Shown here one piece after another: positions 8,806 through 38,777 of a DNA stretch of 64,000 bases. The DNA is from Mayamaea pseudoterrestris (Eukaryota), in NCBI GenBank assembly GCA_027923505.1, contig BROI01000009.1, forward strand, positions 1 through 64,000, read 5' to 3'. The notes beneath the pieces are model-generated. The model saw only the letters and a program-made list of their open reading frames with translations, ran no database searches and was not told the origin of the DNA. The translations under genes were made by a program, and so were the position numbers. Within the stretch, counting starts at the first letter, position 1; each line of letters begins with the position of its first letter.

Positions 8806-8954
8806 AATGGCCACTGGCGCTTCGCCTGCTTTCTGTTTGCCGAAACCAAAGCCTGACGACTGTGGAGGCCCAGGAGAGAGCCGCAGCTATGGCGTTGCAG
8901 ATTGATGGTTGAAAGGAAGGACAGGCGGTCCTGACGAAGGAGGATGTTTACGCG

Positions 8955-10478
8955 TTGAACAAGGAGATGACGATGCAGGAAGGCGTCGACGGTGATGGTA
9001 AACAGTGGTGGCTAGGAACGCCAGCTCGCCTCAAACAGCTCACGTCGGAAAACATTGGAGGCTTCCTTACACTCTCGGCCATGCATAAACAGTATCACGA
9101 GGAATCATTGGAAGAAACGACGGAAACAGGCGAGCAATTGGTTATCATTTGCTCCGCCATGCCATCGAGCACCTTGAACGGTCAGAAGTACATTGTCGGA
9201 AACTCCAAGCTCAGCCTTTCGGATACCGATGGCCATGAAATGATGGAAGAAGGTCTTTTGGCTACCGAAGACCCATTCGTCCCGGTCAGCCACATGGAAC
9301 CAAGTGGCTTTCCAGCGCCTCAAGCGGTCGTCCCCATTCTGGCTTGTCTCTCTCGCATGACTCGTGCCGAAAAGGAGGACACCAGTGACGATTGGTACGC
9401 GAAAATACACTCGGACATTGCGGTTTTCCCGCGAGGAGACAAGCTACTCCAACCGGTCTTGTTTGTCATCCACACGGATGAGCTGCCGCCAGATAATTCG
9501 GAAGAACATGAAATCATCGGCGGCACTGGCCACTGGGAAGGAGCACCTAACTACCAACATGGCGAGCAACCGGTCTTGGCATATGCCACCGACAAAGATC
9601 CGGCCGAAGCAGAAGCAAAGTTTGCTCCATACGGAAAGTGTTTCTTTGTCCCTCCGAATCACGGCATTCCACTCGGCCTCGCTATCGATCCGACCAAGTG
9701 CAGGACAGTCGATCAGTTCAAGCATCTTTGCCAAGAGTTTACGGGCTTGCCAGGCGAGGCGTACGAATGGATGGAGGGCAATCATCTACTGGCCCTGTGG
9801 CTAAAAGGCTGCGAGCAGAGCCCATCGGAAATGCAAACTGAAATGTGGCTAATGTCGCAGGTGACTGACACATGGAACGCTTGGAAAGAGTCGCCCTCGT
9901 TACTCGCACAGCAAACATTCCTCCACCCAGAGCTCATGTTGCGATACAGAATCCTCTGGGATCACTTACTGCATACCCTGGAACCGGCCTGGCGCGACAA
10001 ACTGTTGTTACTGGGTCAAAACGCACAAACCATCTTTAACAACTCGCCGGAGTTGAGCAGTTTCCACGAGCCACGAGTGGAGAACATGTGGTACTTGGCC
10101 GGGCTACTGAATATAAAAACGACAACTTGGATTAAAAATTTTGAGTTAGGCTTCCAGCGCCGCGGCTTGCCAGATTGGTTGGAGAGTTTTGCCAGAGTCG
10201 ACATCACAGCGACGACAACAGCAGCCGACATAAGCAAACTCAGAATTGTTTCAAAACAATCGCAGATGAAGGACAATACCCCAGGAACCGAACCAAGACG
10301 ACGACGCAATATCGGGGAACTGGTCGCAAAAGTATTTCAAGAACGCTTTGTGGCGACGGTTGGCTCGCCGCTTCAAATCAAGCATTCCAAACAAGACAAT
10401 GACCCGCCGACGAGGACAGACGGAAAAGAGCACAGGGACACCCGGGCACAGCAAAAGCATTGGTGTTCGATCACTTAA
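8955..10478 (+). CDS. Element 1 ORF1, unknown protein (possibly the N-terminal half of a frameshifted gag-like ORF)
   Basis: Intronless 507-aa ORF (first ATG at 8967) upstream of the RT; no recognisable motif; its end overlaps ORF2. Confidence 0.6.
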   Translation: MNKEMTMQEGVDGDGKQWWLGTPARLKQLTSENIGGFLTLSAMHKQYHEESLEETTETGEQLVIICSAMPSSTLNGQKYIVGNSKLSLSDTDGHEMMEEGLLATEDPFVPVSHMEPSGFPAPQAVVPILACLSRMTRAEKEDTSDDWYAKIHSDIAVFPRGDKLLQPVLFVIHTDELPPDNSEEHEIIGGTGHWEGAPNYQHGEQPVLAYATDKDPAEAEAKFAPYGKCFFVPPNHGIPLGLAIDPTKCRTVDQFKHLCQEFTGLPGEAYEWMEGNHLLALWLKGCEQSPSEMQTEMWLMSQVTDTWNAWKESPSLLAQQTFLHPELMLRYRILWDHLLHTLEPAWRDKLLLLGQNAQTIFNNSPELSSFHEPRVENMWYLAGLLNIKTTTWIKNFELGFQRRGLPDWLESFARVDITATTTAADISKLRIVSKQSQMKDNTPGTEPRRRRNIGELVAKVFQERFVATVGSPLQIKHSKQDNDPPTRTDGKEHRDTRAQQKHWCSIT

Positions 10479-12169
10479 AGGCGCTACAGTCAAACGATGA
10501 CGATTCGGTGACGCTTGTGGGCGTCAAACGCGCCCCACATCCCCCGTCGACGCCACCCCGAATGAAGCTACCGCAGCGGAAGCCAAATACGCTTGCCATT
10601 CAAAGCAAATCAGGACTCTGTCTCCCGTTCGAGCAAGCAGCCACTCAAATGCACATGTATATCACGGCCGCTACCACAGACGCCGCCTGTGGTCACGTCC
10701 TCATCCCGTTCGAGAGCGAGAATGAAGACACAAACATATTCTCACGAGAAAATTATATCAAGGGATCCATGCTGCACTCAGTCTCTCAAATGGCTCACAT
10801 CGGCGCGATAGCAGTCCCTCCTGCAACGCGAATGGGCCCAGCAACAGTCACAGAAGAGGCAGTGGTATTCCCCGACTACGCCATGCTAATGCCAGGTTTA
10901 GTGAGCAAACCATACTGCGCCAACGTCCTCAGCTCGAAAGCACACGCGTCTGACATCCAACACGCGAGCAATTTCATCCAAACTGAGTATGAGGCAACGC
11001 AACGCTCCTCATTCCCTACTTACTTCAAGCCTCTGCTAGAAGGCGACACGTTCTATACAAGGCCAGAAATGCTTCGCGCACTGCAGTCGGGTGTTATTAC
11101 AGCCGGCACCTCCTTCCAAGTGAGCTCTGCTAGTCTCAGCGCAGGCATATCGCCTTATCACTTCCTCCCGACCATACTAGGCAATTGTTTTCGGCTACCT
11201 CAAGAGGGCATTCCTTGCTTAAAATTGATTCAATTGATTCGAAACATGGGATGGTGGTTACACACGGTCTTCCATTTCCCGAGCAAATTCCGAAAATTGC
11301 AACTGCTCAATGAGGAGCTGTCGCCATTCCTCTTGGCGTCACCTCTCGCTGGCCACTTGCATTGGTTCATTGACCTCTTGTCACAGAGTCAAACTCAGCA
11401 ATCCTGGGATAAAATGTCCGCTCGGCATAAAGTGGCCGCAACCAACGCCGTGTTAATAGCACTCAGCGACTTGCTACAAATCTTTCTCGACTGGGCCGTC
11501 ACACACACAGCAGAACAGCATTGTCTCCAAGTATTGTTATGGGAAAACCCGGCGCGATCGGATCTGAGTGTTTTTGAGTCTACCGTTCGAGTGCGCGATT
11601 ACAATACGGTACATGAGATCCTGCGCGACTGGCGACGCAATTGCTCGTCGTCATTCAACCACACAGTCTTCATGGCCACAGTCATGCCCCTAAATCCATT
11701 TTACACAAGACCAATCCTGCCAGATATTGCGCCGGCACGTTTGATTAACCCGCCCGGCAACCCACCATGCCGGCGCGCAGGCAGCGGCAGCGGCATGCAC
11801 CAGGCGCCAGCGCCACAGCAACAGCAGCACACCAGCACAGCCGATCGAAAAGCGCATTGTCCGTTGATTCGTTTTGTTGACAACGCGGAACCATCCATGC
11901 GCAATGTTAAAGACACACTTGGAACTTGGACTCGCGCACAAATATCGGCGCCGATTATCCAGGGCAAACAGATCTGCTTTCCATTCATCATCGCGGGCAT
12001 GCAAGGTTGCAACTCAGCCAATTGTCAACGCTGCGAAATAGACACTCGGCGAGCAACCCCTCCCTGGACGCGCGAATCGTTATTGCCCTTGACAAACTTC
12101 TTAAATCGAGGGCCAGTTAAACTCAGGTTCCAGCCAACCGCCGAGTACACACGCATCACTTCCTCTTGA
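10460..12169 (+). CDS. Element 1 gag-like ORF with C-terminal Cys cluster
   Basis: 569 aa; a Pro/Gln-rich linker precedes CFPFIIAGMQGCNSANCQRC. Same position as the zinc-finger gag of element 2. Confidence 0.65.
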   Translation: MVFDHLKALQSNDDDSVTLVGVKRAPHPPSTPPRMKLPQRKPNTLAIQSKSGLCLPFEQAATQMHMYITAATTDAACGHVLIPFESENEDTNIFSRENYIKGSMLHSVSQMAHIGAIAVPPATRMGPATVTEEAVVFPDYAMLMPGLVSKPYCANVLSSKAHASDIQHASNFIQTEYEATQRSSFPTYFKPLLEGDTFYTRPEMLRALQSGVITAGTSFQVSSASLSAGISPYHFLPTILGNCFRLPQEGIPCLKLIQLIRNMGWWLHTVFHFPSKFRKLQLLNEELSPFLLASPLAGHLHWFIDLLSQSQTQQSWDKMSARHKVAATNAVLIALSDLLQIFLDWAVTHTAEQHCLQVLLWENPARSDLSVFESTVRVRDYNTVHEILRDWRRNCSSSFNHTVFMATVMPLNPFYTRPILPDIAPARLINPPGNPPCRRAGSGSGMHQAPAPQQQQHTSTADRKAHCPLIRFVDNAEPSMRNVKDTLGTWTRAQISAPIIQGKQICFPFIIAGMQGCNSANCQRCEIDTRRATPPWTRESLLPLTNFLNRGPVKLRFQPTAEYTRITSS

Positions 12170-12265
12170 CTACCTACAATCAGCCAGCCGCTCAAAGACG
12201 GGGCCGCTAGCGGCGACGAGCGGCAGGGTGACAATGGAGCCATACGGCAGGCGACGAACATTACA

Positions 12266-15256
12266 ATGTCCCTCTCCTCTTCGACAAGCGCACCTACTCG
12301 TGACACCGCTCCGACGCCCGCACCTCCTCGACACACCGCTCCGACACCACGGAGGCCACGAGCCCGCCGGCCAACTTGCACCGACCAACTCCGTCCCACA
12401 GCGTACAAGAGCGTTCAGCCAAGCGTTCACAACTTCCACCATTCGAACAAACGACCGATTAACCGCTCCGCCAACGCATACTCCATGCGCCGAGCAGGCG
12501 TCAAACCGTGCCACACCAAGGCGTACTGGCCCTGTCCGTCCTCATACAATCAATATTTCGCCACAGTAATCGCTCCAGTTTGGGAGTATCTGCCAGCCGA
12601 TGATTCATTGGCATTGCAGGCAGCAAATCCACAAAATAATCATCCTCTCTACGGTTCGACGAGCATGCGATACCTGGACACGAAAATTTGGCAACGGCGA
12701 CGTCATGGCTGGGGCAAGGAAACAAATAAGATTCAGACAGAACATGAATGCCCCTCGATTTACCATATTGTGCACATCTTGTGGGACTACCTTCGGGTCT
12801 CGCTTCGTCGACTGGTGTCAAAAGCGCTGCTCGACAAGACGCATGCATACGCCAAACTGCGGCAGCAGGCGGCCACCCGTCCAGTGGAGCATCTTCGCGT
12901 GGAGCGGCACTATCCAGCTCTGGATCTCAGTCCTATTTGCGAAACAAGAGTACTCGACATGGGGGCGGCACTGCTTCGCTGTGACTTCAACTATGGAGAC
13001 CTGGTGCGCTGGTTGGGCGGTGAATATACACAACAAAATCAGGATTGTTCTCTTCTCAAAGATGTCATTGCAACCGTGCGCAAAAGCAACATTCCGCCAC
13101 GGTACCCACCAATTGATTTTGAGGCCGCATTGCAGGCTGTTGACGAAGGAGTTCCAGGCATTAGTCGCTTCCGCTGCCCAATCCGAGACGTTGCCCGTCG
13201 GGAAAGAGAAGACAATCGCGGTTTGGAACACTGCTGGGAGGAAATCATGGACAAATATCGGAAGGAAGAGAAGCTCTCATACCACATCATGTTTCCTCGC
13301 TTTTTGTGGAAATACATCCCGGGGTTGTTCATCGCTTTGATCTCATACATACCACCCAAACCGGGGCGTATTGGTGATGAAGGCAGACTCATCAATGACC
13401 CTTCAACGCCTCTTTATCCGGGCGACAAGGGAAACGTTAATGGACAAATACCTAAAATTAAAATGAGTAACCATGCGCAGCTACAAAATCCAAAGGTTCA
13501 CTACGGCACGGTCATTCACCGCCTTGTAAAATAAATCTATAACCTTCGCCTGGATCATCCTACCGAAGAGCTCTACATGGCGGCAGATGACATCTCGGCT
13601 GCTTTCCGCTGGCTACATTATCATCCTGACATTGCGGTTGCTTTTGGAACGGTTTTGTCGCATTGGTTGGTTATACCAGTGGGCATGATCTTTGGCGGAC
13701 GATTCTCGCCGGGTTGGTACATGATTTTAGGGGAGCTGCGCGGGCACATAGCAGCCACACTGGATATTGGCAACGCCTCCACGGACCTGTCAGAAAACAT
13801 TACTTTGGGTGCCGAGTTGGATGCTGCTGGCAAGTCCTCCATCGTCTCAGCAGTACAGGACCGCTACAACAATGGCAGTCGGGCAATCTTGGGCCAAGAT
13901 TACAAGTTTGGATTCTCCAGTTTTGTTGACGACCAAGCTGTGGTTACCACAAGGCCGTTCATACGAGAGGCCATCCATCGAAGTGTCATTGCTGCACGTG
14001 TTGTCTTTGGCGAACCGAATCCTAAACATCGCTCACCGTGTATCAATGAAAGGAAATGGAAGAGCGAAGTGACCCACCAGTTAACCTACCTTGGCTTGGA
14101 CTGGGACACTCGGGCAATGACGGTGGGTTGGCCAGAGGCAAAACAACAGAAGTTGGCGTCCATGTTGGAGCACCTACACTCGGATTGGTTGTCAAACAAA
14201 CAATTCAAAACGGTAGTCGTCACGGCCGCCGATAAATCCTCCATTGTTGGTTTGATGCGACACGGGGCCTTTGTGGCAGACCTGGCAGATTTTCTTTCCA
14301 TTCGAGTCCAACAGTCTCTTTCAGATGCGGCCCGAAAGGCCGATGAACAAGCACGGCGTGTAGCCGCTAAAGCACGCACTTCCAAGCCGTCCTCAAGAGC
14401 TTGGTGGCGCAAAGGTCGGATTGCGCTCTCAAAGGAAGTCTTAGATGACTTGCGCATGCTGTATCCAACTTTGAACAATCCAGCCTGGCGACACGTGTGG
14501 CACAAACCTATTGGCCTCATGGTTGACCGGGAGCCAAATAACTCCATGCGGAGTGATGCCAGCACGAAAGGAGTCGGGGGATGGAATCTCACCTTGCTCT
14601 TTATGTGGCGCTTGAATGACGAGGACTTGGCTACCTGCAAATTCAAAATGCGCAAGTTCAATCCCAAGCCTTCTCGACGACCACTCGTCACGGATGAATA
14701 CCATATCAATATTTTGGAATTCGTGGCCATTGTCATAAACGTGGTGCTGTCTTTGGGTGCCATCTGCCACACACCAGCCATTCGCGATCGACAACACATT
14801 CTCAACGTATTGTCAGACAACACCTCGGCGCTTTCCTGGATGCGACACGCAGCCCGCTGTACAAAACCAGAAGTGCGGAGACTTGCACGATTTTTCCATG
14901 CCATCACGACTTACCAACCGCTTGCTCTCCGCATCCAGGCAAATCACATTCCAGGGAAGGACAATGTGGAGGCCGACCGACTCTCTCGATTCACTCCATC
15001 AACAATGTCGTGGGCGTCCGTTATCTCGCAGGACACGCAGGCATTGGCAGCTTGCAGAATCTTCCTAGTGGAGCGAGAGCTGCTTTCAACGATCTCGTCC
15101 GTGATCAATGGGAGCGCAAGCGAGGCGACATACGGACCAGAAACGATCGCGCGTTTGATCAGAGAGCCTCGCATTTTGGCCGATGGAGTCTCCAGGCAGG
15201 ATTCACAGACAAGTCTTTTGAGGAAGTCTCACCGGGGCAAGAAGTCGCGATCCTAG
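12266..15256 (+). pseudogene. Element 1 reverse transcriptase-RNase H, split by one in-frame TAA (13532-13534)
   Basis: ORFs 12266-13534 and 13577-15256 share a frame. RT motifs: GRLINDPS, DDISAAFR, PVGMIFGGRFSP, FVDD, YLGLDWDT. RNase H motifs: SDAS, HINILE, SDNTSA, HIPGKDNVEADRLSR. Confidence 0.9.
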
Positions 15257-16311
15257 CGGGATACTTGTTTGCAGTGGCCTCAGGTAAAACATCACTTGAG
15301 ATCGACAAAAAGAAACTCCAAGGGAAGGCCGGCGACCAACAAAACCCATTGATGGTGAAAACATTGGTGGGCTATTTGAATGCCGCACATTCCCTCCTCG
15401 AGCTGTTCCTCAACAGAAAATTTCCAATCCAAAATCCAAGCAAGGAGGGATATCATCCAATGCTTGCCGACATACTGGCCAGTCGGCGCAAGTGGCAAAA
15501 GGCGCGAGAGAAGCGGGAGCCTTTCACCAACAAGATGTTTGAGTACTTATATGCCACATTGAAAAAGGAGACGGCCACCGACGCAACAGTAAACCTGGAC
15601 GTCCAAGCTGCAGTTTTTGACTGGACATGCCTTGGGGCTTTCACCGGCTCGCGAGCAAATGAATACGCACAGACTACAGCACGTAGAGGATGCTTCAGCA
15701 AGGTCCCCGCAAATAGGGATGCCGGTGAATGGGCCAACCAACCGCTGGCATTCATTGATTTAGATTTCATGTTTTACACGGCTGACAGTGTCCTGATCAC
15801 ACATGACAGGCTGCTAAGACAGCAAAGGTCCGCAACTGAATTACACCTGCGCTTTCGCTATGACAAAAGCCAAACCAATTTCACCATACGAAAATTTAAA
15901 CGGTCCGGGCATCCATTCATCTGCCCAATTGCCGCCAGTATTTCCATCATTGGACGCGCACGGTGCCTTCACAACAAACCGTTCAAAGAGCCTTTGGGCG
16001 TCTTTCGAACGTCCTCCACTGGGGTTTATGACTATCTACAGTCTCGGGATATCATCAAAGTGATGCGTGCGGCGGTGGTTGGAGCATACCCAAACCCGCA
16101 ACATTTCCTGCGACAGAATGTGACTCGCATTGTGGCTCACTCCAACAGAGTCACGGCTGCCGTTGCCTTGCAGAATGCAGGCCTTGATATTCAAGAGATT
16201 GCATTCAGGCTGCGCTGGTCTGCACCATCAGTTCAACATTACCTTCGAGAAAGCTCCCAGGAAGTCGGGCGCCTGACGCTCAAGGCTATCCAGGGAGCAG
16301 TTTTAATTTGA
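15010..16311 (+). CDS. Element 1 tyrosine recombinase
   Basis: Catalytic pattern FTGSRANEY ... HSNRVTAA ... LRWSAPSVQHYL; overlaps the RT 3' end by 247 bp. Confidence 0.9.
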   Translation: MGVRYLAGHAGIGSLQNLPSGARAAFNDLVRDQWERKRGDIRTRNDRAFDQRASHFGRWSLQAGFTDKSFEEVSPGQEVAILAGYLFAVASGKTSLEIDKKKLQGKAGDQQNPLMVKTLVGYLNAAHSLLELFLNRKFPIQNPSKEGYHPMLADILASRRKWQKAREKREPFTNKMFEYLYATLKKETATDATVNLDVQAAVFDWTCLGAFTGSRANEYAQTTARRGCFSKVPANRDAGEWANQPLAFIDLDFMFYTADSVLITHDRLLRQQRSATELHLRFRYDKSQTNFTIRKFKRSGHPFICPIAASISIIGRARCLHNKPFKEPLGVFRTSSTGVYDYLQSRDIIKVMRAAVVGAYPNPQHFLRQNVTRIVAHSNRVTAAVALQNAGLDIQEIAFRLRWSAPSVQHYLRESSQEVGRLTLKAIQGAVLI

Positions 16312-16959
16312 GTGTCGCTCACGACCTCAGCTACTAGCAGACGTTACACTCTTCTGCAACATTGAGATTATAGGTTACGAGAATGTAGCTAAAGGTTTGC
16401 ATCCGAGTCGCCGCCCTTCGGGTCGGTTGCTTGTGCGCTCCTCGTCTTTAGCTAGCTCCTCTTTATCAGGGGCCATCTCCAAGGTCTTTTCACAGATCCA
16501 GAGTCTTCTCGTTCTCCTTCTCTTTCCTTCTTCCGCGGTTCTCGCCACACGGCCTCTTTGTTTGTTTGTGTGGCGTGACTGCCCCCAGCAAGCTGTTGTT
16601 CGTGTGGGTTGTGGCGAATCCTCCTCACAGGATTCGCTCCAGTCATCATTGATGACGTGGTTGTTGCTCCAGGGACCCGGAGTTTGCACTCCGAGTCCAC
16701 ATAGCAAATGCAACCACAGGACATCGCTGCCGACTTTGGGCAGCTGGCCGGGCGCAGCCTAGCACGCGGAAGGAAACAGCCGAGCGACGGAGGGCAATCT
16801 GCACTTGTGCTGATTGTCCGGCTCAGGGCGGATGCTTCGAGGAGACTGCCTTGGGGACACTCATAAGATACCCTTATGAGTACACTGTGATCGATAGTCA
16901 CGTCATCAGTGGTGCGGGGAGAGAAGAATGGGAACAGCTACCGACAACGGGCAGACCAC

Positions 16960-17691
16960 ATGCCGATGTTGATCGGGTTGCCGGCCAGTCCTTTGTTTGA
17001 CTGGACATGCCTTGGGGCTTTCACCGGCTCGCGAGCAAATGAATACGCACAGACTACAGCACGTAGAGGATGCTTCAGCAAGGTCCCCGCAAATAGGGAT
17101 GCCGGTGAATGGGCCAACCAACCGCTGGCATTCATTGATTTAGATTTCATGTTTTACACGGCTGACAGTGTCCTGATCACACATGACAGGCTGCTAAGAC
17201 AGCAAAGGTCCGCAACTGAATTACACCTGCGCTTTCGCTATGACAAAAGCCAAACCAATTTCACCATACGAAAATTTAAACGGTCCGGGCATCCATTCAT
17301 CTGCCCAATTGCCGCCAGTATTTCCATCATTGGACGCGCACGGTGCCTTCACAACAAACCGTTCAAAGAGCCTTTGGGCGTCTTTCGAACGTCCTCCACT
17401 GGGGTTTATGACTATCTACAGTCTCGGGATATCATCAAAGTGATGCGTGCGGCGGTGGTTGGAGCATACCCAAACCCGCAACATTTCCTGCGACAGAATG
17501 TGACTCGCATTGTGGCTCACTCCAACAGAGTCACGGCTGCCGTTGCCTTGCAGAATGCAGGCCTTGATATTCAAGAGATTGCATTCAGGCTGCGCTGGTC
17601 TGCACCATCAGTTCAACATTACCTTCGAGAAAGCTCCCAGGAAGTCGGGCGCCTGACGCTCAAGGCTATCCAGGGAGCAGTTTTAATTTGA
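16960..17691 (+). pseudogene. Chimeric N-truncated YR copy created by the duplication
   Basis: ATG at 16960 reads in frame across the junction (MPMLIGLPASPL|FDWTCLG...) into the identical catalytic domain. Confidence 0.7.
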
Positions 17692-17985
17692 GTGTCGCTC
17701 ACGACCTCAGCTACTAGCAGACGTTACACTCTTCTGCAACATTGAGATTATAGGTTACGAGAATGTAGCTAAAGGTTTGCATCCGAGTCGCCGCCCTTCG
17801 GGTCGGTTGCTTGTGCGCTCCTCGTCTTTAGCTAGCTCCTCTTTATCAGGGGCCATCTCCAAGGTCTTTTCACAGATCCAGAGTCTTCTCGTTCTCCTTC
17901 TCTTTCCTTCTTCCGCGGTTCTCGCCACACGGCCTCTTTGTTTGTTTGTGTGGCGTGACTGCCCCCAGCAAGCTGTTGTTCGTGT

Positions 17986-18196
17986 GGGTTGTGGCGAATC
18001 CTCCTCACAGGATTCGCTCCAGTCATCATTGATGACGTGGTTGTTGCTCCAGGGACCCGGAGTTTGCACTCCGAGTCCACATAGCAAATGCAACCACAGG
18101 ACATCGCTGCCGACTTTGGGCAGCTGGCCGGGCGCAGCCTAGCACGCGGAAGGAAACAGCCGAGCGACGGAGGGCAATCTGCACTTGTGCTGATTG
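17986..18196 (+). repeat. Element 1 internal repeat B1' (211 bp; second copy at 16606-16816)
   Basis: gggttgtggcgaatcc...cttgtgctgattg matches 24923-25133. Confidence 0.95.
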
Positions 18197-18361
18197 TCCG
18201 GCTCAGGGCGGATGCTTCGAGGAGACTGCCTTGGGGACACTCATAAGATACCCTTATGAGTACACTGTGATCGATAGTCACGTCATCAGTGGTGCGGGGA
18301 GAGAAGAATGGGAACAGCTACCGACAACGGGCAGACCACATGCCGATGTTGATCGGGTTGC

Positions 18362-18492
18362 CGGCCAGTCCTTTGTCCTAGCCGACATACCGGCTTGCTG
18401 TCATCCAGCCCATCTAGGCAGCTAGCTAGTTGGAGAGACGAGTTGGTGTTAACAGGCAGTTTACTTGCCAGCCCCCCCAGGCCCAGTGTCGC
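18362..18492 (-). repeat. Element 2 repeat B2 (131 bp)
   Basis: cggccagtcctttgtcc...cccagtgtcgc matches 18729-18859. Confidence 0.96.
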
Positions 18493-18510
18493 GAGGGTGG
18501 GTGAGGAGGG

Positions 18511-18729
18511 TGAAGCTTATGAGACTATCTAATGAAGTACTGGAACTGCTTGACTCGGATGTCTGCAGTTGACTTCGTGCAACAGAATGAGGAGACGAGA
18601 ATCGACGTCGCGAGGCTTTCGCCGCGCGGAGCGTAGTAAGGCGGTATCAGGTAAAGTCTCGAGTAGGTGCATGTGCTTCTTGGTGTTCAATTGTCCGGTG
18701 CGGCTTTCTTCCCCCTGCACCGGAATGAC
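18511..18729 (-). repeat. Element 2 repeat A2 (219 bp)
   Basis: tgaagcttatgagac...caccggaatgac matches 24628-24846. Confidence 0.96.
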
Positions 18730-18859
18730 GGCCAGTCCTTTGTCCTAGCCGACATACCGGCTTGCTGTCATCCAGCCCATCTAGGCAGCTAGCTAGTTGG
18801 AGAGACGAGTTGGTGTTAACAGGCAGTTTACTTGCCAGCCCCCCCAGGCCCAGTGTCGC
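18729..18859 (-). repeat. Element 2 repeat B1 (131 bp), abutting A2
   Basis: Copy of 18362-18492 at offset 367. Confidence 0.96.
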
Positions 18860-18993
18860 TCCAACAGCCTCCCATTTCGGAGGAAGTCTGAGAAATCAGG
18901 CCACGACAAGTCTGGGTGGGAGCGAAGCGGGGAGGCACGAAGTGCGGGAAAGAAAAGCGCGCGGTCGAGAGCGCGAGACGGCGCGCGAGGAAA

Positions 18994-20115
18994 TTACATG
19001 AGTGGAACGAAATGGTTGGGAATAACATTAAAATGGCCGCCAGCGACCATGAGTTGGGCGTAGTGGTGCATGGCGGGCAGTGCTTGAACGTGGAGGTAGC
19101 GGAGCATGGCGTCGGAGTGCCAGCGACCAATGAGTCGGATGCGGTCGGAGTCCACGTTGGAGCAGAGTAGAGCTTGGGCGCCGCCAGCGCGAAGCGAGCG
19201 GGCGTTAATGTCGGTCGGAAGAATGCCCAACGCGGGGCCGAGCAACACCACGGTGTCGCGAAGGGCTGTGGTGATGTCGCCGGAGCGTAGCGCGTAGGGT
19301 TCGGGAAGATAGACGGTGGCGAGCGGGGTAGTAGTGTCGGCCGCGTGTGCGCGGAGGTGAAGGAGGCGGCGAATGATGGCGCGAGTAGGGCAAAGGAGGG
19401 GGTCGCCCGTGACGCCGTGGGCGACGACCTCCCCGCGCGTACCATTCTTTTGGGTAGTGAAAGTCAGGCTGCAACCAGTGGAGCGTGCCATGTCGGCCGA
19501 GGTTGCAGTGGCGAGATCCCATCGACCGCCAGCGTGGAACAGCTGGACATCGCAGAACCGAAACGGTTCGGAGTATTCGCCGGGGCGGAGGAGAAAGAAG
19601 TAGGCGATGGTAGTCATATCGGCGACGGCTTGGAGTAGAGGCGTGCCAGCCGGTGCGTGCGCAGCGTGGAGACACGAGCGCACTACTTGGATCGGGAGGG
19701 GCTTGACGCGATTCGGCGGCGGATCGGCGCGGCCAAAGTACTTGAGCAGGCGTTGGAGGCGAATGTCGATTTTGCCCGTGGCGTCGTACCGGATGTCGCG
19801 GGTCCCCATGAGGGCGAACGCCTGGCCGACGGCACGTAGGGCGTCATCCACGGTGCTAGCCCGGACGGGTCGACCGCGGGGTGCGATGTCGCCCGATCGA
19901 TAGAGCTGCGCGAATACCAGTAGGGGTTGGATTGGGTCGGAACAATGGGGCAGTGTGGGCGCCAGTCCGTAGCGGGTGCAGAAGGCGGTCCAGCACTGCC
20001 AGGCGGTGTCGGCGGACCGGGCGGTGGAAGAAACGACGCCGTGTCGGACGCCGTACGCAACAAGGCGGAGCTGATCGCGGAGCTCATGGCGGGTCGCAGA
20101 TGGCAGAGTGTCCAT
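18994..20115 (-). CDS. Element 2 tyrosine recombinase
   Basis: FFLLRPGEY ... TTQKNG ... RSLRAGGA ... IGRWHSDAMLRYL; overlaps the RT ORF by 433 bp. Confidence 0.95.
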   Translation of the reverse strand: MDTLPSATRHELRDQLRLVAYGVRHGVVSSTARSADTAWQCWTAFCTRYGLAPTLPHCSDPIQPLLVFAQLYRSGDIAPRGRPVRASTVDDALRAVGQAFALMGTRDIRYDATGKIDIRLQRLLKYFGRADPPPNRVKPLPIQVVRSCLHAAHAPAGTPLLQAVADMTTIAYFFLLRPGEYSEPFRFCDVQLFHAGGRWDLATATSADMARSTGCSLTFTTQKNGTRGEVVAHGVTGDPLLCPTRAIIRRLLHLRAHAADTTTPLATVYLPEPYALRSGDITTALRDTVVLLGPALGILPTDINARSLRAGGAQALLCSNVDSDRIRLIGRWHSDAMLRYLHVQALPAMHHYAQLMVAGGHFNVIPNHFVPLM

Positions 20116-22412
20116 GGGGAATCCTGTGGGTAAGTGGTGTTAAAGTGCGTGAGAAACTCATCGTCGGACAATTCCCAAAGGCGCGACGCGTCGTCGGCCA
20201 TGACGTTACAGGGGCCCGGAATGTAGTCGTGTCGCGGGACATAGCGGTAGTGACGCTGGTGCCAACTTTGGAGGCGCAGGAGATACGCGGCTGGGCCGAC
20301 GGTGGTCGTGGAGCCGCGTTGTTGCCAGCTGACGGCGGCGACGTTGTCGTGGAGGCTGTGGATCGTGCGCTCGGCCACGTCCGCGAGCTGGGCGATGACG
20401 TCGTGGTGCGCCACGCTGCCGGCCAGTTCCAAGTCGCTATTGGTGATGGTACCGTGGGGGTTGTCGCTGGACACCAGTTTGGACTGGATGCGTGGCGTGA
20501 AAGGGTGGCGCCACACGACGGGGCGCACCCGACGCCGCGAGTCGGTGAAGAAAGCTGCGCCGCCCATGCCACGGCCGGCTGCATCCGTGGTGCCGGGAAG
20601 GCCCGTGGGCTGAGGGACCACTTCGAGAATGCGAGCAGGGCGCGCGGCGAGGCGACGTGCCACGACGCGAAAGTCGGCGAGAAAAGTGTGCACGGCGGGC
20701 TTCAGGCGAAGTCTCCCTGAGTGCTCGAGGGGGTGGCGAAAAGCCTCTTGTAGCAGACTGAAGAGTCCACGTACGCCAGGCAAGGCGAGCGACATGGAGC
20801 GCAGCTCCCCCAATACCTTATGCCACGTTTTGCGGCCCACGCGGTGCTGCGTGGGAGGGATTGACTCGAGTATCGCGTGGAGGCGCGCGAGGCGATGCGG
20901 CGGTAGCGTGATGGTGCCTGCGACCGTGTCGATGTCCCACCCCAGTATGGTCTTCCGAGTGGACCACGCGCCGTCGCCTTTGCGTAACTTCTTTACCGAG
21001 ATGGGTTCCTGTCGATGTGGATTGTCAGTTGGGAGCAGTGGACGGAACACCGTGTCGAGCGCGTGGAAGAGATCGCGGCGTAGCTGGCGCTGGCGTGGAC
21101 GGCCGCCTTGGCACAGTCCAATGAAGTCATCGACGTACACGTCATGGTGGCCGACCGGTCGTTGGAAGTATGTCGCTGTCGACGTGACCGGGAGCGGCAT
21201 CGTGTCCGGAGTCGCGTCGTCGCACGGTGCGTCGGGCCCCGGCGCTGGGAGCGTGTCGGCTTCGCTTTCCAGCCGGTGCGGCGTGGTGTTGTGGCGTGGC
21301 GTGGCGTTGGCGATGTCGGCGATCGTCTCGGTGGCCGACGTGAAGAATGGCGGCGAATGTACCCACCCCATGGGTAGCGTGAGCGGAAAGGCGATCAGTT
21401 GTTCTTCGCCCGGACTCGTGGGAAAGAGGACGCCCAACTTCGGTATGTCGGCCGGTCGTAGCCCGATGCGGTAGAAACCGTCGGCGATGTCGATTTTCGC
21501 GAGGCGTACGTTTCCGTAACGTGGATTGGCGCGTGCGATGTTGTACATGATTCGGTGCAAGGCCCGGCCGAATTGCATCGACTCGAATGGTGCGATCGGC
21601 ACGGACTCGTCGTTTACGCCGAAGAAGCTGTAGTCCACGATCGTGCGCGGTCGTCGCTCACGTTGTTCCACGGCGCCCACGGGGCTGAGTCGCAAGTCGG
21701 GCAAGTGGGCGACGGAACTCGCTGGTACCACGATCCAATGTCCCTTGTGTATCATGTCGGCGAACTCTTCGCGTAGAAAAGCTTGATGGTCCTTGGCGGA
21801 CTGATGTGGGCCACGGTCGATCGCGGCTTGTCGTCGTTCAGCCGTCCACGGCGCAGTTTGCAGTTGGACGGGCGCGCCCCGGTCCCGAAGATGGCGTAGG
21901 AGGTGGCGCGCTGGATGGTCAATGTCGCCAACCGTGTCGGCGAGGTCCGGTGGGTCGCGTACTCGATTGATAAAGTCCTCCCACGACGTGGAGGCCTGCA
22001 GCGTGTGGTGTGCTTCGCGTACTAGGTCGCCGAGTGGGTCGTCGAGGAGTTGCGCCGGCCGAGGCGCCGTGGGTGTCAATGGCCGTGGAGGTGCGTCGCG
22101 TGGACCCCCGCGCGTGTGCGGTGGCGTGCGTGATGCGTCGAAGGATGTCGGTGGGGCGCGAGTCGCTACTTCGCTTGTCGGTGTCGAGGGGTCGAGCGTC
22201 TCCTCGATGGACTCGGGGATGGACGCTAATGTCGGTCGGAATGTCGGGGTCGGTGCAGCGCGGCGTCTGCGTAACGTGGTGGTGGAGCGCTGGGTCAGTT
22301 TGCCAACGGCTCCGTCGAATGGTGGCTTACCTAGATTAGCGTTTGGAACAAACATGTGACTAGTTAGGTTTTCAGTTAGACTACTCCTGCCTTCTTCGAT
22401 CCGCCGCCTCAC
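19683..22412 (-). CDS. Element 2 reverse transcriptase-RNase H
   Basis: RT motifs: RTIVDYS, KIDIADGFY, LPMGWVHSP, YVDDF, ILGWDID. RNase H motifs: TDAA, NSDLE, HDN, YIPGPCNVMADDASR. Start uncertain (first ATG at 22355). Confidence 0.95.
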   Translation of the reverse strand: MRRRIEEGRSSLTENLTSHMFVPNANLGKPPFDGAVGKLTQRSTTTLRRRRAAPTPTFRPTLASIPESIEETLDPSTPTSEVATRAPPTSFDASRTPPHTRGGPRDAPPRPLTPTAPRPAQLLDDPLGDLVREAHHTLQASTSWEDFINRVRDPPDLADTVGDIDHPARHLLRHLRDRGAPVQLQTAPWTAERRQAAIDRGPHQSAKDHQAFLREEFADMIHKGHWIVVPASSVAHLPDLRLSPVGAVEQRERRPRTIVDYSFFGVNDESVPIAPFESMQFGRALHRIMYNIARANPRYGNVRLAKIDIADGFYRIGLRPADIPKLGVLFPTSPGEEQLIAFPLTLPMGWVHSPPFFTSATETIADIANATPRHNTTPHRLESEADTLPAPGPDAPCDDATPDTMPLPVTSTATYFQRPVGHHDVYVDDFIGLCQGGRPRQRQLRRDLFHALDTVFRPLLPTDNPHRQEPISVKKLRKGDGAWSTRKTILGWDIDTVAGTITLPPHRLARLHAILESIPPTQHRVGRKTWHKVLGELRSMSLALPGVRGLFSLLQEAFRHPLEHSGRLRLKPAVHTFLADFRVVARRLAARPARILEVVPQPTGLPGTTDAAGRGMGGAAFFTDSRRRVRPVVWRHPFTPRIQSKLVSSDNPHGTITNSDLELAGSVAHHDVIAQLADVAERTIHSLHDNVAAVSWQQRGSTTTVGPAAYLLRLQSWHQRHYRYVPRHDYIPGPCNVMADDASRLWELSDDEFLTHFNTTYPQDSPWTLCHLRPAMSSAISSALLRTASDTASFLPPPGPPTPPGSAGPPSAPATDWRPHCPIVPTQSNPYWYSRSSIDRATSHPAVDPSGLAPWMTPYVPSARRSPSWGPATSGTTPRAKSTFASNACSSTLAAPIRRRIASSPSRSK

Positions 22413-22478
22413 TTGACGACCCTCCCGAAGACTTGCAGGCTGTGACCGTCGCGCGCCAGGCGACGGCCTGCCGACCCC

Positions 22479-24620
22479 CTACGGGGACGGCACGGACTGG
22501 CACCAGGCCACCAAGCGCGCCGTCTCAGTCGGCGTGTGGGGGCCATGGTCGGCGCGGCGTGCGCACGCTGTCGTGCAACTGCCTCGTACATGGTAGGTTA
22601 GACACATCGGCGTGCCGTCGTCGCGTACCGGGAAAGCGCCGCGTCCGGCCGTGATGTTCCCAATGCGGAAATTCGGCTCCTGGGCGTTGCGAAAGGCAAG
22701 GAGTTCCGGAGGTGTGTCGGCCGCCGGGAGGGCCTCGCGCGTGCCGCCTCCGCCGCCGCCGCCTGCGCCGCCGCCTTGCGTGCCGCTTGAGCCTGGAGCG
22801 GCACCGCCGTTGCGCGGCGCGCCGCCACCTTGCGACGCTCCCGTGCGGGTGCCCGTTCCCCTTGTCGAAAGTGTCGAGTCGTCCGAGGGTCCGCCGTCGA
22901 CGATGCCTCCCCGCGCCCCAGGTGTGCGCGGACCGAGGCCCGGCAGCTCGAGGTCGTACCAGCTGCGGTCTTGGTAGTTCCACATGCGGAGGAGACTGAG
23001 AAGCGCTGGCGCTGTCGTGTCCCGCGCTCCATCCGCCAAGTCGCGAAGGAAGTGGCCGACACGGATCTGGATCCAACGCATCGCCTTGCTTGGACCTTTT
23101 TCAATGCGGCCGAGGTAGCCTTCGTAGTCGTGCTCCTTCTCTCGGTACATTACCATGAACGTGTCGACTGTTACCGTGAGCGTGTGCGTCGCCCCTAGTA
23201 CCTGCTTGAGTACCTTGAGGTAGGCTTCCATCTGCGAGCGGAACTGAGTCGGGGTGTTCGGGGCGAAGATCTTGCGATTCGCCTCGCGGAACGAGCGGGC
23301 GTCGCGCAAGTCCACGGAGCCCCCTTCAAAGACCAGTTGGTGGTCTTCCACGTTGGCTTGGATCTCGGCCGTTCGAGTCGATGCTGAGTTTGTGCTGGTG
23401 TCGAGCGTGGCGACGATAAACGGCTGGAGGCCTTGCGTCAGGTCGTTGATGTTGTCGGGCGCGAGCGCGACGTGCTTGAGGAGGCTCAAGTGCGCTGGCG
23501 TGGCGATGGGGCGGCAGCCTGGTCCGCCCGACTGGCGGTAGGCGTCGGCCAAGTTGTTCAATGCGTTGGCGCTGGTGCTACCCGCGAGGACCGCCCAGAT
23601 AGGCGGCCACGCGTCGCTGTCGTCCGTTCCCAGTAGGCGCCCCAGCAAGTTCATGCCGCCTACGCCGAACGTCTTGGTGAGTTGCGTCGCGGGGTCCGTG
23701 TCGTCTTTGCGTGATGCGCTGCGTTCTTGAGCGAGGAGCGTCATCAGTCGGATGCTGTCGATTGGTGCTTGAGGCGGCGCCGGCAGCGGAAGGTACATGC
23801 GATGCACGGCGACACGCTGCTCGGCGAGGGATTGCGTCATCAGCACTGGCACTGGCGGCGGCGCCAAGGCGAGCGACGCCGGTCGATTGTTCCGCTCCGA
23901 CGTGGCGCAGACAAGGAGAAAGTCGAGTAGTTCGCGATAATTGTCAACTTGGTCGAGCGCTCGCGCGCGATGCAACACGGTGCGGTAGGCCTTGGCGGGT
24001 TCGTAGTCGTGATCCATCAGAAGCTCCACCAGCTCGTGCTGCAAGTAGCACGTGCGTCGCACTCGCGCCACGCGTCCCGGAAGCGGGTCGCCGACCGAAC
24101 CGTCATCCACGAATCCCGGGTCTTGGAGTACGCAGTTGCCTAGCATGCCGGTCCAGTCGTGGTCGTCCCACCAGGCGCACGCGATGTCGTCGGTCGTTGG
24201 GATCGTCTCGTTCGGTAGGGCGTCGAAATCGCGTTCCACGATGCGTACACAGTGCCCTTGGCCGGCGACGAGGTCGCCCAGCGTGGCGTAGACTCGCCCG
24301 TCGAGGGGCGTCATGACGAGGCCTGCGACGTACTGCTGAAAGCCAGTGTAAACCTTGATCGTCCCGATCGTGTCGCCTGGTTCCGTGCGATGGTAACGGA
24401 TGTAAGCGCCGGCGCGCGTCGGAGGCACGCTGACGATTCGTTCGAGAATGTCAGCGCCGTCGTAGTCGTGGACAAGTGGGTCGAGCTGCTCGATCCACGC
24501 GCGGCTGTTGCCGCGAAGGGCGTCGTTGGTCGGCGAGGCGAAGAAGTCGAGGAGCGAGGCGTTGGTCGAGATGCCGGCGGGGCCCCCAATGGCGTGAGGG
24601 ACAGGAGGAGCGTCAGCCAT
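22479..24620 (-). CDS. Element 2 gag-like ORF
   Basis: 713 aa from ATG; Gly-rich linker then CCCH-type finger CLTYHVRGSCTTACARRADH. Confidence 0.85.
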   Translation of the reverse strand: MADAPPVPHAIGGPAGISTNASLLDFFASPTNDALRGNSRAWIEQLDPLVHDYDGADILERIVSVPPTRAGAYIRYHRTEPGDTIGTIKVYTGFQQYVAGLVMTPLDGRVYATLGDLVAGQGHCVRIVERDFDALPNETIPTTDDIACAWWDDHDWTGMLGNCVLQDPGFVDDGSVGDPLPGRVARVRRTCYLQHELVELLMDHDYEPAKAYRTVLHRARALDQVDNYRELLDFLLVCATSERNNRPASLALAPPPVPVLMTQSLAEQRVAVHRMYLPLPAPPQAPIDSIRLMTLLAQERSASRKDDTDPATQLTKTFGVGGMNLLGRLLGTDDSDAWPPIWAVLAGSTSANALNNLADAYRQSGGPGCRPIATPAHLSLLKHVALAPDNINDLTQGLQPFIVATLDTSTNSASTRTAEIQANVEDHQLVFEGGSVDLRDARSFREANRKIFAPNTPTQFRSQMEAYLKVLKQVLGATHTLTVTVDTFMVMYREKEHDYEGYLGRIEKGPSKAMRWIQIRVGHFLRDLADGARDTTAPALLSLLRMWNYQDRSWYDLELPGLGPRTPGARGGIVDGGPSDDSTLSTRGTGTRTGASQGGGAPRNGGAAPGSSGTQGGGAGGGGGGGTREALPAADTPPELLAFRNAQEPNFRIGNITAGRGAFPVRDDGTPMCLTYHVRGSCTTACARRADHGPHTPTETARLVAWCQSVPSP

Positions 24621-24627
24621 GGTAGCC

Positions 24628-24846
24628 TGAAGCTTATGAGACTATCTAATGAAGTACTGGAACTGCTTGACTCGGATGTCTGCAGTTGACTTCGTGCAAC
24701 AGAATGAGGAGACGAGAATCGACGTCGCGAGGCTTTCGCCGCGCGGAGCGTAGTAAGGCGGTATCAGGTAAAGTCTCGAGTAGGTGCATGTGCTTCTTGG
24801 TGTTCAATTGTCCGGTGCGGCTTTCTTCCCCCTGCACCGGAATGAC
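24628..24846 (-). repeat. Element 2 repeat A1 (219 bp), 5' end
   Basis: Copy of 18511-18729; ends 8 bp before the gag ATG at 24620. Confidence 0.96.
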
Positions 24847-24922
24847 TCCCATTCCTTTGGTTAGCTTGCCGACCTTGTTGTTGTCTAGCAAGCTCTCTGT
24901 TGTTTGTCCCACCCACCCACCC

Positions 24923-25133
24923 GGGTTGTGGCGAATCCTCCTCACAGGATTCGCTCCAGTCATCATTGATGACGTGGTTGTTGCTCCAGGGACCCGGAGT
25001 TTGCACTCCGAGTCCACATAGCAAATGCAACCACAGGACATCGCTGCCGACTTTGGGCAGCTGGCCGGGCGCAGCCTAGCACGCGGAAGGAAACAGCCGA
25101 GCGACGGAGGGCAATCTGCACTTGTGCTGATTG
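24923..25133 (+). repeat. Element 1 terminal repeat B2' (211 bp)
   Basis: Matches B1'; unrelated sequence (ctaatcg...) follows 25133. Confidence 0.95.
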
Positions 25134-25244: not shown

Positions 25245-25862
25245 ATGACGAGCAGCTGTCTCTTCCTTTCCTTGACAATTTTCCTTGCAGCAGCGGCAGC
25301 AGTCGCGCACGGGTTTTCCGCACGTTTGGCGTCGACTCGACCACTCGACAGTCGACAGCTGCCGTCGCAAGCAGTAGAGTCACTATCATTTCTCGAGGCA
25401 TTGTCGTCTAGTACAACCGTTGACGCTCCAACGAGAGAACGTACCGATCGTTCCTCTGCATCAGACGAGGATTCGTATGACGACGACATCGAGTATTATG
25501 GCAACGATGAATTAGAGTACAATATCGACTTGGCAGTGTCACGCGAGCTACATGATCCCTACCATATTCTGTTGCTTGGAACCACCTTTGAAAAGCCAAA
25601 GATCACCATTCCCTACGTGTCTAGTAGCTTGGAGTACGTGCTCAACATGCCGGAACTGGAAGCCAAGGATTTGAGCAAGTTTGCGCAGGAGCAAGGCTTG
25701 TCGTGCCTTGGAACTTGGACGAGGGAGGAATGCTTGAGTCTGGGGCGCAAGCTGCAGCTGCGCGACTTGGTTTGTCGCGTCGTTCCGTACACGGTTGGAG
25801 GACAGCGAGGATGGCAAGCTAAGAATGCCAATGAAGAATTGGGAAGGGTATCGTCTGATTGA
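25245..25862 (+). CDS. Plastid-targeted ClpS-like adaptor protein
   Basis: Signal peptide ending VAHG-F, Ser/Arg-rich transit region, then PYHILLL...YVSSSLEYVLNMPELEAKDLSKFAQEQGLSCLGTWTREEC, resembling the ClpS core. Confidence 0.65.
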   Translation: MTSSCLFLSLTIFLAAAAAVAHGFSARLASTRPLDSRQLPSQAVESLSFLEALSSSTTVDAPTRERTDRSSASDEDSYDDDIEYYGNDELEYNIDLAVSRELHDPYHILLLGTTFEKPKITIPYVSSSLEYVLNMPELEAKDLSKFAQEQGLSCLGTWTREECLSLGRKLQLRDLVCRVVPYTVGGQRGWQAKNANEELGRVSSD

Positions 25863-37754: not shown

Positions 37755-38777
37755 TACGTCATGAGGCAATAGTACGAAACGAGTGCCAGTGTCAATTACG
37801 TCATACGGCAATAGTACGAAACGAGTGCCAGTGTCAATTACGTCATGAGGCAATAGTACGAAACGAGTGCCAGTGTCAATTACGTCATCAAGGCAATAGT
37901 ACGAAACGAGTGCCAGTGTCAATTACGTCATCAAGGCAATAGTACGAAACGAGTGCCAGTGTCAATTACGTCATGAGGCAATAGTACGAAACGAGTGCCA
38001 GTGTCAATTACGTCATGAGGCAATAGTACGAAACGAGTGCCAGTGTCAATTACGTCATCAAGGCAATAGTACGAAACGAGTGCCAGTGTCAATTACGTCA
38101 TACGGCAATAGTACGAAACGAGTGCCAGTGTCAATTACGTCATAAAGGCAATAGTATGAAACGAGTGCCAGTGTCAATTACGTCATGAGGCAATAGTACG
38201 AAACGAGTGCCAGTGTCAATTACGTCATCAAGGCAATAGTACGAAACGAGTGCCAGTGTCAATTACGTCATCAAGGCAATAGTACGAAACGAGTGCCAGT
38301 GTCAATTACGTCATGAGGCAATAGTACGAAACGAGTGCCAGTGTCAATTACGTCATCAAGGCAATAGTACAAAACGAGTGCCAGTGTCAATTACGTCATG
38401 AGGCAATAGTACGAAACGAGTGCCAGTGTCAATTACGTCATCAAGGCAATAGTACGAAACGAGTGCCAGTGTCAATTACGTCATACGGCAATAGTACGAA
38501 ACGAGTGCCAGTGTCAATTACGTCATGAGGCAATAGTATGAAACGAGTGCCAGTGTCAATTACGTCATGAGGCAATAGTACGAAACGAGTGCCAGTGTCA
38601 ATTACGTCATGAGGCAATAGTACGAAACGAGTGCCAGTGTCAATTACGTCATCAAGGCAATAGTACGAAACGAGTGCCAGTGTCAATTACGTCATGAGGC
38701 AATAGTACGAAACGAGTGCCAGTGTCAATTACGTCATGAGGCAATAGTACGAAACGAGTGCCAGTGTCAATTACGTC
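37755..38777. repeat. Minisatellite, 24 copies of a 42/43-bp unit
   Basis: Core GGCAATAGTACGAAACGAGTGCCAGTGTCAATTACGTCAT followed by a variable GA, AC, CAA or AAA. Confidence 0.97.

Follow-up and report, generated by a model that had tools for sequence, protein, structure and literature searches.

The locus considered here raises the questions of whether a diatom genome carries a complete and recently mobile retrotransposon that integrates by means of a tyrosine recombinase (YR), to which of the known groups such an element belongs, and how its three genes might be expressed. The window, meaning the whole 64,000-bp stretch of DNA that was analysed, comprises positions 1 to 64,000 of contig BROI01000009.1 of Mayamaea pseudoterrestris (assembly GCA_027923505.1). 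It contains an element, E1, that lies inside a second YR retroelement, E2. We consider it likely that E1, whose architecture is that of Ngaro, is a retrotransposon of autonomous type that belongs to a large unnamed diatom-associated clade and has been mobile recently in this genome.

Anatomy of E1 and its insertion into E2

On the minus strand E1 is ordered A1-gag-RT/RNase H-YR-B1-A2-18 bp-B2, where RT is reverse transcriptase and A and B are two pairs of direct repeats (Table 1). The raw exact matches pair 18511-18729 with 24628-24846 (A) and 18362-18492 with 18729-18859 (B), both with zero mismatches, and they share one C at position 18729 that was assigned to B. This repeat layout is far beyond chance. 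The A repeat is 218 bp and E1 ends at 24845 because base 24846 belongs to the target, as determined from empty sites, read contigs and the flanks of other copies. The right flanks of other E1 copies begin with C, G or A and the left end constantly begins with C. The B1/A2 joint at 18728/18729 is the sequence that results when the two ends of E1 are joined (GAATGA/CGGCCAG), and this joined-end sequence is also present inside every element of the E1 type. No inverted repeat pair was found at the ends of E1.

A sequence-only reading of this DNA had proposed a complete element at 18362-24846 with identical A (219 bp) and B (131 bp) repeats in the order A1-ORFs-B1-A2-B2 (ORF, open reading frame) and a B1/A2 junction equal to the joined termini. 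The completeness, the identity of both pairs, the length of B, the order and the nature of the junction were all borne out. The A repeat and the right end are each one base shorter than proposed, the register gaatgac/ggccag is shifted by one base, and a spacer separates A2 from B2. That reading also overlooked that E1 is nested in another YR retroelement and that 1,380 bp are duplicated in tandem here.

Table 1. Features of E1, of its host element E2 and of the adjoining satellite (window coordinates)
Feature	Position	Strand	Remarks
E1, full-length split-direct-repeat YR retrotransposon	18362-24845	minus	6,484 bp, GC 63%, no target-site duplication
A1 repeat, 218 bp	24628-24845	minus	identical to A2; exact extension
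ORF1, Gag-like, 713 aa	22479-24620	minus	no Pfam match; weak matches to diatom gene models
CCCH-like finger, C-x8-C-x3-C-x5-H	22545-22604	minus	
Single UAG between gag and pol, one frame, UAG-GGG	22476-22481	minus	type III readthrough context; predicted readthrough
ORF2, pol frame, RT-RNase H, 931 codons	19683-22478	minus	YVDD; RNase H D-E-D-D; first ATG 22355
Predicted splice donor AG/GTAAGC	22325-22333	minus	intron's first base is 22330 (phase 1)
Predicted branch motif CTCAC and acceptor CAG	20124-20153	minus	last intron base 20124
ORF3, Cre-like (modelled) YR, 373 aa from ATG 20115	18994-20115	minus	overlaps pol; R-K-(R)-R-W-Y
18-bp (6-residue) YR gap of the window copy	19572/19573		copy alignment, read contigs
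B1 repeat, 131 bp	18729-18859	minus	identical to B2; exact extension
A2 repeat, 218 bp	18511-18728	minus	exact extension
Unique spacer between A2 and B2, 18 bp	18493-18510	not assigned	
B2 repeat, 131 bp, 3' end of E1	18362-18492	minus	exact extension
E2, host YR retroelement, distant family	8812-25133	plus	5' end lost at satellite
E2 ORF	8913-10478	plus	
E2 ORF	10403-12169	plus	
E2 ORF	12170-15256	plus	stop at 13532-13534
E2 YR	14698-16311	plus	
E2 B1'	16606-16816	plus	copy at 17986-18196
E2 A2'	18197-18361 and 24846-24907	plus	split by E1
E2 B2'	24923-25133	plus	17986-18196 recurs here
Exact tandem duplication, 1,380 bp	15616-16995 and 16996-18375	plus	holds E2 YR end and first 14 bases of E1
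Satellite, alternating 180/172-bp units	1-8811	plus	strongly depleted in CpG (observed/expected 0.17); adjoins E2 at contig start

E1 sits within the A2' terminal repeat of E2. The 3' part of E2, used as a genome query, gave 62 matches, and the uninterrupted empty site (18361 followed by 24846) was present at nine of the ten E2-repeat loci examined. Read contigs of runs X1 and X3 jump exactly 6,484 bp at the E1 site. Additionally, the E1 copies on C41 and C30 are inserted in satellite DNA; when their flanks were joined without an extra base they matched the satellite 73 and 115 times (at most two mismatches, within the loci extracted for this analysis), and with any base added there were only 0-1 satellite matches. 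Because of the empty sites, the 6,484-bp contig skips and these flank joins the insertion is a clean one, so E1 inserts with fixed ends and with no target duplication or loss. A one-base target duplication was rejected since the C41 and C30 flanks match satellite only without an extra base. The 1,380-bp duplication would either have followed the insertion of E1 or be an assembly artefact. Among the read contigs listed (40 of 168 rows), none spanned the filled E1/E2 junctions, which weighs against the insertion as drawn here, and none covered the joint of the duplication.

Several observations concern E2 itself. A different insertion (L049/L057, C3:1581776) breaks the A' repeat of E2 three bases from the E1 site, and solo A'B' repeats of E2 lie within satellites at C1:607k (L044) and C25:437k (L050), resembling the solo AB repeats of Cafeteria Ngaro elements. 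The two long ORFs that precede pol in E2 (8913-10478 and 10403-12169) have no Pfam match, and the first is 717 codons long in the C14 copy. At least six E2-related lineages are present in the genome. The ORFs of the window E2 (8812-12174) and of the C14 copy (L058) are 66-79% alike and their terminal repeats 99%, and L122 has an RT that is 98.5% like that of the window E2 yet diverges directly after the gag stop. This mismatch between ORFs and repeats and the break in L122 may be signs of recombination among the E2-group families.

Classification and the recombinase

The pol frame of E1 matched the Pfam family RVT_1 at an E value of 0.057 and gave no integrase match; RVT_1 was matched by 40 of 52 aligned pol sequences, with a best E of 6e-6. 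A structure model of pol covering 22001-20200, with the last 170 residues outside it, had a mean predicted local distance difference test score (pLDDT) of 89.8 and its best matches were caulimoviral and retroviral RTs (E 6e-14), by which E1 pol is modelled as an RT-RNase H fold. The acidic residues of RT and RNase H are retained in 116-120 of 120 relatives. No integrase or protease was matched by Pfam in the E1 proteins or aligned relatives, and no methyltransferase in the full E1 pol frame or the 52 pol relatives; in E1 the overlap with YR comes immediately after the RNase H.

The open frame of ORF3 spans 20139-18994 on the minus strand. Neither a Pfam match to the YR nor any match of its profile to PDB sequences (0 matches) was obtained. 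The structure model of the YR had a pLDDT of 88.9 and its best match was Cre (E 2e-6), and on this model the E1 recombinase is a Cre-like fold. With residues numbered from the Asp encoded at 20112, R176, K222, W331 and Y339 do not vary, and 119 of 120 relatives keep R308. The R-H-R-Y tetrad with H-x-x-R does not occur in the E1 YR: the position of the His, fixed by profile alignment to H-S-N-R of E2, is occupied by Arg in E1 as well as in 117 of the 120 relatives. Five diatom relatives, from Pseudo-nitzschia, Cyclostephanos and Skeletonema, all carry A-R-[SC]-L-R, and among 149 distant YR representatives a loose pattern, indicative only, counted 56 with Arg, 4 with His and 55 uncovered. The Arg at this position would mark a variant and not a dead enzyme.

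Relatives of E1 are numerous. Among 8,000 candidates each, 1,220 pol and 1,014 YR relatives were found, the best being 63% and 57% identical, and the YR profile matches 1,140 protein clusters at E 1e-30. In a protein cluster atlas only clusters without names were matched, their taxa drawn from one to four members. The named relatives are all diatoms: Mayamaea, Cylindrotheca (one of ten clusters looked up), Pseudo-nitzschia, Cyclostephanos and Skeletonema. A metagenome scan yielded three loci from 200 candidates, and none of 55 candidate viral contigs was confirmed.

The sequence-only reading had called the element Ngaro-like and had named Ngaro and PAT as the groups with split direct repeats and YR integration. 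[quoted passage not shown] E1 combines RT-RNase H with a tyrosine recombinase and has no DDE integrase or protease match, which places it in the DIRS order. [quoted passage not shown] The DIRS group proper has inverted terminal repeats and an internal complementary region, and VIPER elements, of kinetoplastid hosts, have the order gag, YR, RT/RNase H; E1 has the order gag, RT/RNase H, YR and no inverted pair at its ends, and its named relatives are diatoms. PAT elements have a methyltransferase after the RNase H, and PAT is disfavoured because none was found and because the internal repeats are downstream of the YR. The RT motifs of E1 probably resemble those of Ngaro more than those of DIRS1 or PAT. 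With high confidence E1 is a YR retrotransposon of Ngaro architecture, and probably, as judged from its structure, it is also Ngaro by descent.

It is improbable that the clade instead derives from PAT or from a separate YR lineage that, having lost its methyltransferase, acquired the Ngaro layout by convergence, as all structural features tested fit Ngaro. Such a history would be consistent with the R-x-x-R of the clade's YR and with its distance from curated profiles (RVT_1 at E 0.057, no integrase match, 0 PDB sequence matches). Structure alone can misclassify YR elements, and a derivative of Pat1 without the methyltransferase has been described (PMC4157794).

E1, taken as Ngaro, resembles several known elements. 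Ngaro elements of Cafeteria burkhardae have the layout A1-[gag, RT/RH, YR]-B1A2B2 (RH, RNase H), are 6-7 kb long and GC-rich, leave solo AB repeats and show a family-specific bias for insertion into other parasitic DNA, all features in common with the elements described here (PMC8547959). Compared by description, their YR carries His-x-x-Arg and that of the E1 clade Arg-x-x-Arg (117/120), and the main text of that paper does not mention readthrough, which is predicted for E1 (PMC8547959). DIRS-53_XT of Xenopus is like E1 in its split direct repeats (236 and 152 bp), its lack of a methyltransferase and a YR frame shifted relative to pol (PMC9210276). The Xenopus Ngaro has an SGNH hydrolase ORF and all its ORFs overlap, whereas E1 has no fourth ORF and its gag and pol abut in frame (PMC9210276). 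The PAT-like elements Pat1, Toc3 and Kangaroo share split direct repeats with E1, and Pat1 has a zinc finger in Gag; PAT elements encode the methyltransferase that was not found in E1 (PMC4157794). Fungal Ngaro clades have also been described (PMC3783388).

In the ochrophytes, 15 Ngaro families make up 2.45% of the Ectocarpus genome (PMC12477816), and Ngaro in Ectocarpus is also curated according to PMC3145265. Chaetoceros muelleri, a diatom, carries the same superfamily label as E1 and Ectocarpus, as an "LTR/Ngaro" software class (LTR, long terminal repeat) given without an element structure, which E1 has (bioRxiv 10.64898/2026.04.27.720831). For Fragilariopsis, the categories listed include "DIRS" (bioRxiv 10.1101/2025.04.02.646770). 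The available text of PMC2806351, PMC8613185 and PMC3212892 does not describe such a diatom family, and no curated diatom Ngaro family was found in the literature searched, as far as its available text goes, with the founding Ngaro papers, Repbase and Dfam lying outside it. The novelty suggested by the sequence-only reading is thus weaker than proposed, with Ngaro curated in other stramenopiles, labelled by software in a diatom, and relatives of E1 in five named diatom genera. Finding a Ngaro element in a diatom comes as no surprise, as the class is known and expected there. What is predicted to be new is the clade-wide His-to-Arg recombinase and a conserved readthrough-plus-splice layout, including a junction of the UAG type.

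Predicted expression of the three genes

ORF1 weakly matches the N-terminal portions of gene models from diatoms in which pol and YR are present as well. A CCCH finger had been proposed in an intact gag. The frame is open and a CCCH-like finger is present, with a spacing common to E1, family E3 and the Skeletonema relative; Pfam finds none in gag.

The pol frame opens at the codon directly after the gag UAG (22479-22481). In a survey of the gag/pol junction at 21 of 29 loci (eight short fragments were left out), gag ends directly before a single in-frame stop at 15 loci, and the other six are broken copies. The 15 loci represent eight lineages, seven with UGA-C and E1 with UAG-GGG; three of the seven are exactly UGA-CUA or UGA-CGG. 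Identity within the lineage groups is 56-83%, and E1 and E3 are barely alignable to the E2 group. Among 84 background long-frame stops, a set that includes non-genic frames, there were two UGA-C and no type II or III hexamers. Type II (UGA-CUA/UGA-CGG) and type III (UAG-GGG) are known readthrough contexts, and the type III signal of Moloney murine leukaemia virus (MoMLV) is the same UAG-GGG between in-frame gag and pol (PMC13517186). In the relatives the frame is open for 159-295 codons ahead of the conserved RT start, with the first Met 7-190 codons past the stop or absent for 176 codons. From these contexts it is likely that the UAG is occasionally read through and that Pol arises in this way, fused to Gag. 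Five long proteins considered as natural Gag-Pol fusions were set aside as prediction products and not evidence, since they come from gene models of diatoms in which the YR is joined on as well.

The recombinase would be expressed differently. A splice scan of E1 found 18 donor-like sites, three of them in phase 1, and the only GTAAG on the E1 coding strand is the one at 22330. The predicted intron, 22330-20124, is 2,207 nt long and its removal leaves a frame that is open for 425 codons from the gag stop to the end of the YR. In-frame joints into the YR also exist for family E3 (2,648 nt) and for metagenome locus L118 (2,246 nt). The donor footprint [LI]G[KE] occurs in 20 of 25 long N-terminal arms (from 120 relatives), compared with a mean of 0.83 and a maximum of 4 in shuffles; the acceptor Gln is present in 120 of 120 proteins and CTCAC...CAG in all four DNA lineages. 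Taken together, these signals make it probable that the recombinase is translated, fused in frame, from RNA lacking 22330-20124. In E2 no GTAAG donor lies near the gag stop, and GTRAG matches are present in 12170-14800; expression of the E2 YR may differ from that of E1.

Several points weigh against this scheme. RNA structure after the E1 stop is weak (z scores of -0.06 for 82 nt and -2.7 for 122 nt, and -1.8 in a repeat run), and at the other eight junction loci none passes z -1.4; a pseudoknot or hairpin after the gag stop was rejected as unconvincing on these scores. The stop contexts are not independent because the lineages share ancestry. In addition, pol (22355) and YR (20115) have their own ATGs, so that this family could strictly do without either readthrough or an in-frame splice. 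Re-initiation, or a set of shorter RNAs, could let Pol and YR be translated from these ATGs, in which case the shared frame would be inherited and not read through. Apart from the presence of both ATGs and the lack of strong structure, this would fit an acceptor-like stretch (CTAAC...TAG) just ahead of the pol ATG and the 67 of 119 YR relatives that are called with a Met within two columns of the E1 YR start. We regard it as unlikely, since the frame of the relatives stays open while their first Met lies far past the stop or is missing, the E3 YR has no ATG at this place, and leaky stop contexts are found in eight of eight lineages.

The preferred scheme of readthrough plus splicing resembles gammaretroviruses, in which env, the third gene, is expressed from a spliced RNA. 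The third gene of E1, the YR, is by analogy predicted to be spliced. E1 has no shown pseudoknot, protease, integrase or envelope, so this is analogy and not membership. No record of readthrough or splicing in YR retrotransposons was found in the available text of the literature searched; the founding Ngaro papers, which may record the stop or the Arg, were outside it.

Copies, targets and mechanism

The 3' repeat block of E1 has 22 matches in the assembly, corresponding to 12 independent sites with an end, and the family is multicopy. An internal remnant on C13 without an end was dropped, and the shared flanks of C7/C11:571k, C4:1178k/C20 and C11a/b were counted once. The window copy is the only one found with all three frames open; the 11 other aligned pieces are all truncated or deleted, with substitutions of 0.3-2.6%. 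Among 14 E1 read-contig rows (within the 40 of 168 rows listed), 12 of 12 coding differences are synonymous, and E1 differs from C18 by 17 synonymous and 1 nonsynonymous changes and from C12b by 11 and 3. Purifying selection between E1 copies is thereby shown. Contigs of 1,154 and 1,811 bp from X1 have 0 and 1 differences to E1 at depths of 281 and 327, where flanking-gene depth is 24 in X1 and 89 in X2, and E1 depth in X2 is about 2,200-3,500; these depths are rough and cannot be read as numbers of copies, and the source sample may be X1 itself. The simplest reading is a homogeneous E1 family with more copies than the assembly shows. TpA-erasing hypermutation was not seen in E1 (TpA observed/expected 0.69, compared with 0.56 in host genes). 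Between two minisatellites on C11 (L032/L033, C11:15182-24505), the 3' half of an E1 copy is duplicated in tandem, exactly and over 3,405 bp.

Other comparisons count against recent mobility. E1 differs from C11b by 49 synonymous and 35 nonsynonymous changes and from C4 by 1 and 2, as expected for decayed copies. In C41 and C30, which are decayed, A1 does not differ from that of E1, and because of this repeat identity dates the insertion poorly, or else the assembly homogenised the repeats.

The window copy itself may be impaired because of a private deletion of six residues in its YR. The 18 bp missing at 19572/19573 are present in copies C41, C11a, C11b and C18 and in all the read depth of runs X1 and X3, and the GEY-PFR gap is two residues in the window YR compared with eight in 63 of 82 scorable relatives (38 were unscorable). 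It is a real but less than even prospect that this copy is defective, or in part put together by the assembly, and that the mobile master is a sister sublineage. The deletion falls right after the first catalytic Arg, the bases at which this copy departs from the majority of reads are concentrated in its YR half, with gag and RT nearly identical, and exact duplications occur here (1,380 bp) and at C11 (3,405 bp). On the other hand, the three frames are open, the catalytic residues are retained, the differences are synonymous and the YR model folds with its pLDDT of 88.9. The intact RT-RNase H and YR frames and the young, potentially active family of the sequence-only reading therefore need qualification: the frames are open, and the identical repeats, synonymous differences and depth agree with a young multicopy family, but the YR lacks six residues that other copies have and activity of the window copy is not supported.

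Satellite arrays occur at several places on many contigs, and one centromere per contig is not supported for this reason. In addition to the satellite of the window there are families of 169, 171/172, 181, 183, 352-357 and 371 bp (e.g. L074, L035, L063, L036, L055); a word of the 169-bp satellite occurs 7,955 times in the assembly and another satellite word 1,141 times. Five of 12 E1 sites adjoin a satellite array (unit of at least 160 bp), compared with 3 of 40 random points (Fisher p 0.011), and 7 of 12 are within about 200 bp of an array, compared with 7 of 40 random points within 2 kb (p 0.0095). The random set consisted of 40 stretches of 8 kb drawn from 27.8 of 30.6 Mb, in which arrays with units of at least 160 bp make up 10.5% of the bases. 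One of the remaining sites adjoins a minisatellite and four are E2, a copia-like remnant (called by eye) and two unplaced flanks. Many E2-group ends likewise adjoin satellites.

The target bases of E1 share no word with the joined ends GAATGA/CGGCCAG, and because of this integration looks homology-independent. A target resembling the joined ends was considered, since 10 of 13 bases are alike to the right of the window site, and failed at the other sites. That copies are steered to satellites is possible, though we would put it below an even chance. The two enrichments in the assembly point that way, and target bias is known for the Cafeteria Ngaros (PMC8547959) and DIRS-1 (PMC7192593). Survival of copies in gene-free DNA would leave the same clustering and is moderately probable: no motif is common to the targets, among which are five repeat types, the copia-like remnant and E2, and if satellites form 25-30% of the real genome the p value rises to 0.04-0.16. 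Survival is at least as likely as targeting. DIRS-1 of Dictyostelium is likewise a YR retrotransposon that accumulates in heterochromatin and pre-existing elements; it has inverted repeats with an internal complementary region and a methyltransferase domain, none of which is found in E1, and a trinucleotide is proposed to be common to its junction and target, whereas E1 targets share none (PMC7192593).

The proposed cycle of E1 follows the family model. A full-length RNA would be reverse transcribed, and the A and B pairs would permit strand transfers that rebuild both ends, with the B1/A2 joint as template of the joined ends. The recombinase would insert the product at a target without shared sequence. 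Gag would come from the full-length RNA, Pol from occasional readthrough of the UAG at 22479-22481, and the recombinase from RNA with 22330-20124 spliced out. By this route the window copy would have jumped into the A2' repeat of E2. A double-stranded circle is the usual proposal for the intermediate of DIRS-order elements. The A and B pairs would be identical because repeat annealing in reverse transcription rebuilds the ends (family model, PMC6681497). The complementary DNA found for DIRS-1 was mostly single-stranded and linear, and amplification gave no circle joint (PMC7192593); a circular intermediate for E1 stays a model, by analogy.

Other features lie beyond the two elements. A host gene at 25245-25862, 110 bp from the E2 end, has a signal-peptide-like start and no Pfam match; by eye we take its product to be a plastid-targeted ClpS-type protein. 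A tandem repeat (42/85 bp, 24 units) occupies 37755-38777. A gene cluster at 40182-59336 has helicase-associated (HA) domains, confirmed by Pfam only at 42675-44123; two of its ORFs are PWWP-like and paralogous.

That a diatom has a Ngaro-type element at all does no more than fill a gap. The translation of overlapping ORFs, the integrated DNA form and the target choice of DIRS-order elements are largely untested, and in the literature consulted DIRS-1 is the only one to have been studied experimentally (PMC7192593). With ends known to the base, empty sites, and predicted readthrough and splice signals at known coordinates, the E1 family, which is young, multicopy and full-length, makes each of these questions simple to assay. 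The full combination, an undescribed diatom YR clade with gammaretrovirus-like expression (readthrough, and a spliced YR in place of env), a His-to-Arg homology-independent recombinase and steering to nucleosome-length satellite heterochromatin, is doubtful as a whole. If true, a clade-wide Arg at the position of the general-base His together with insertion without shared sequence would widen the known range of tyrosine recombinases.

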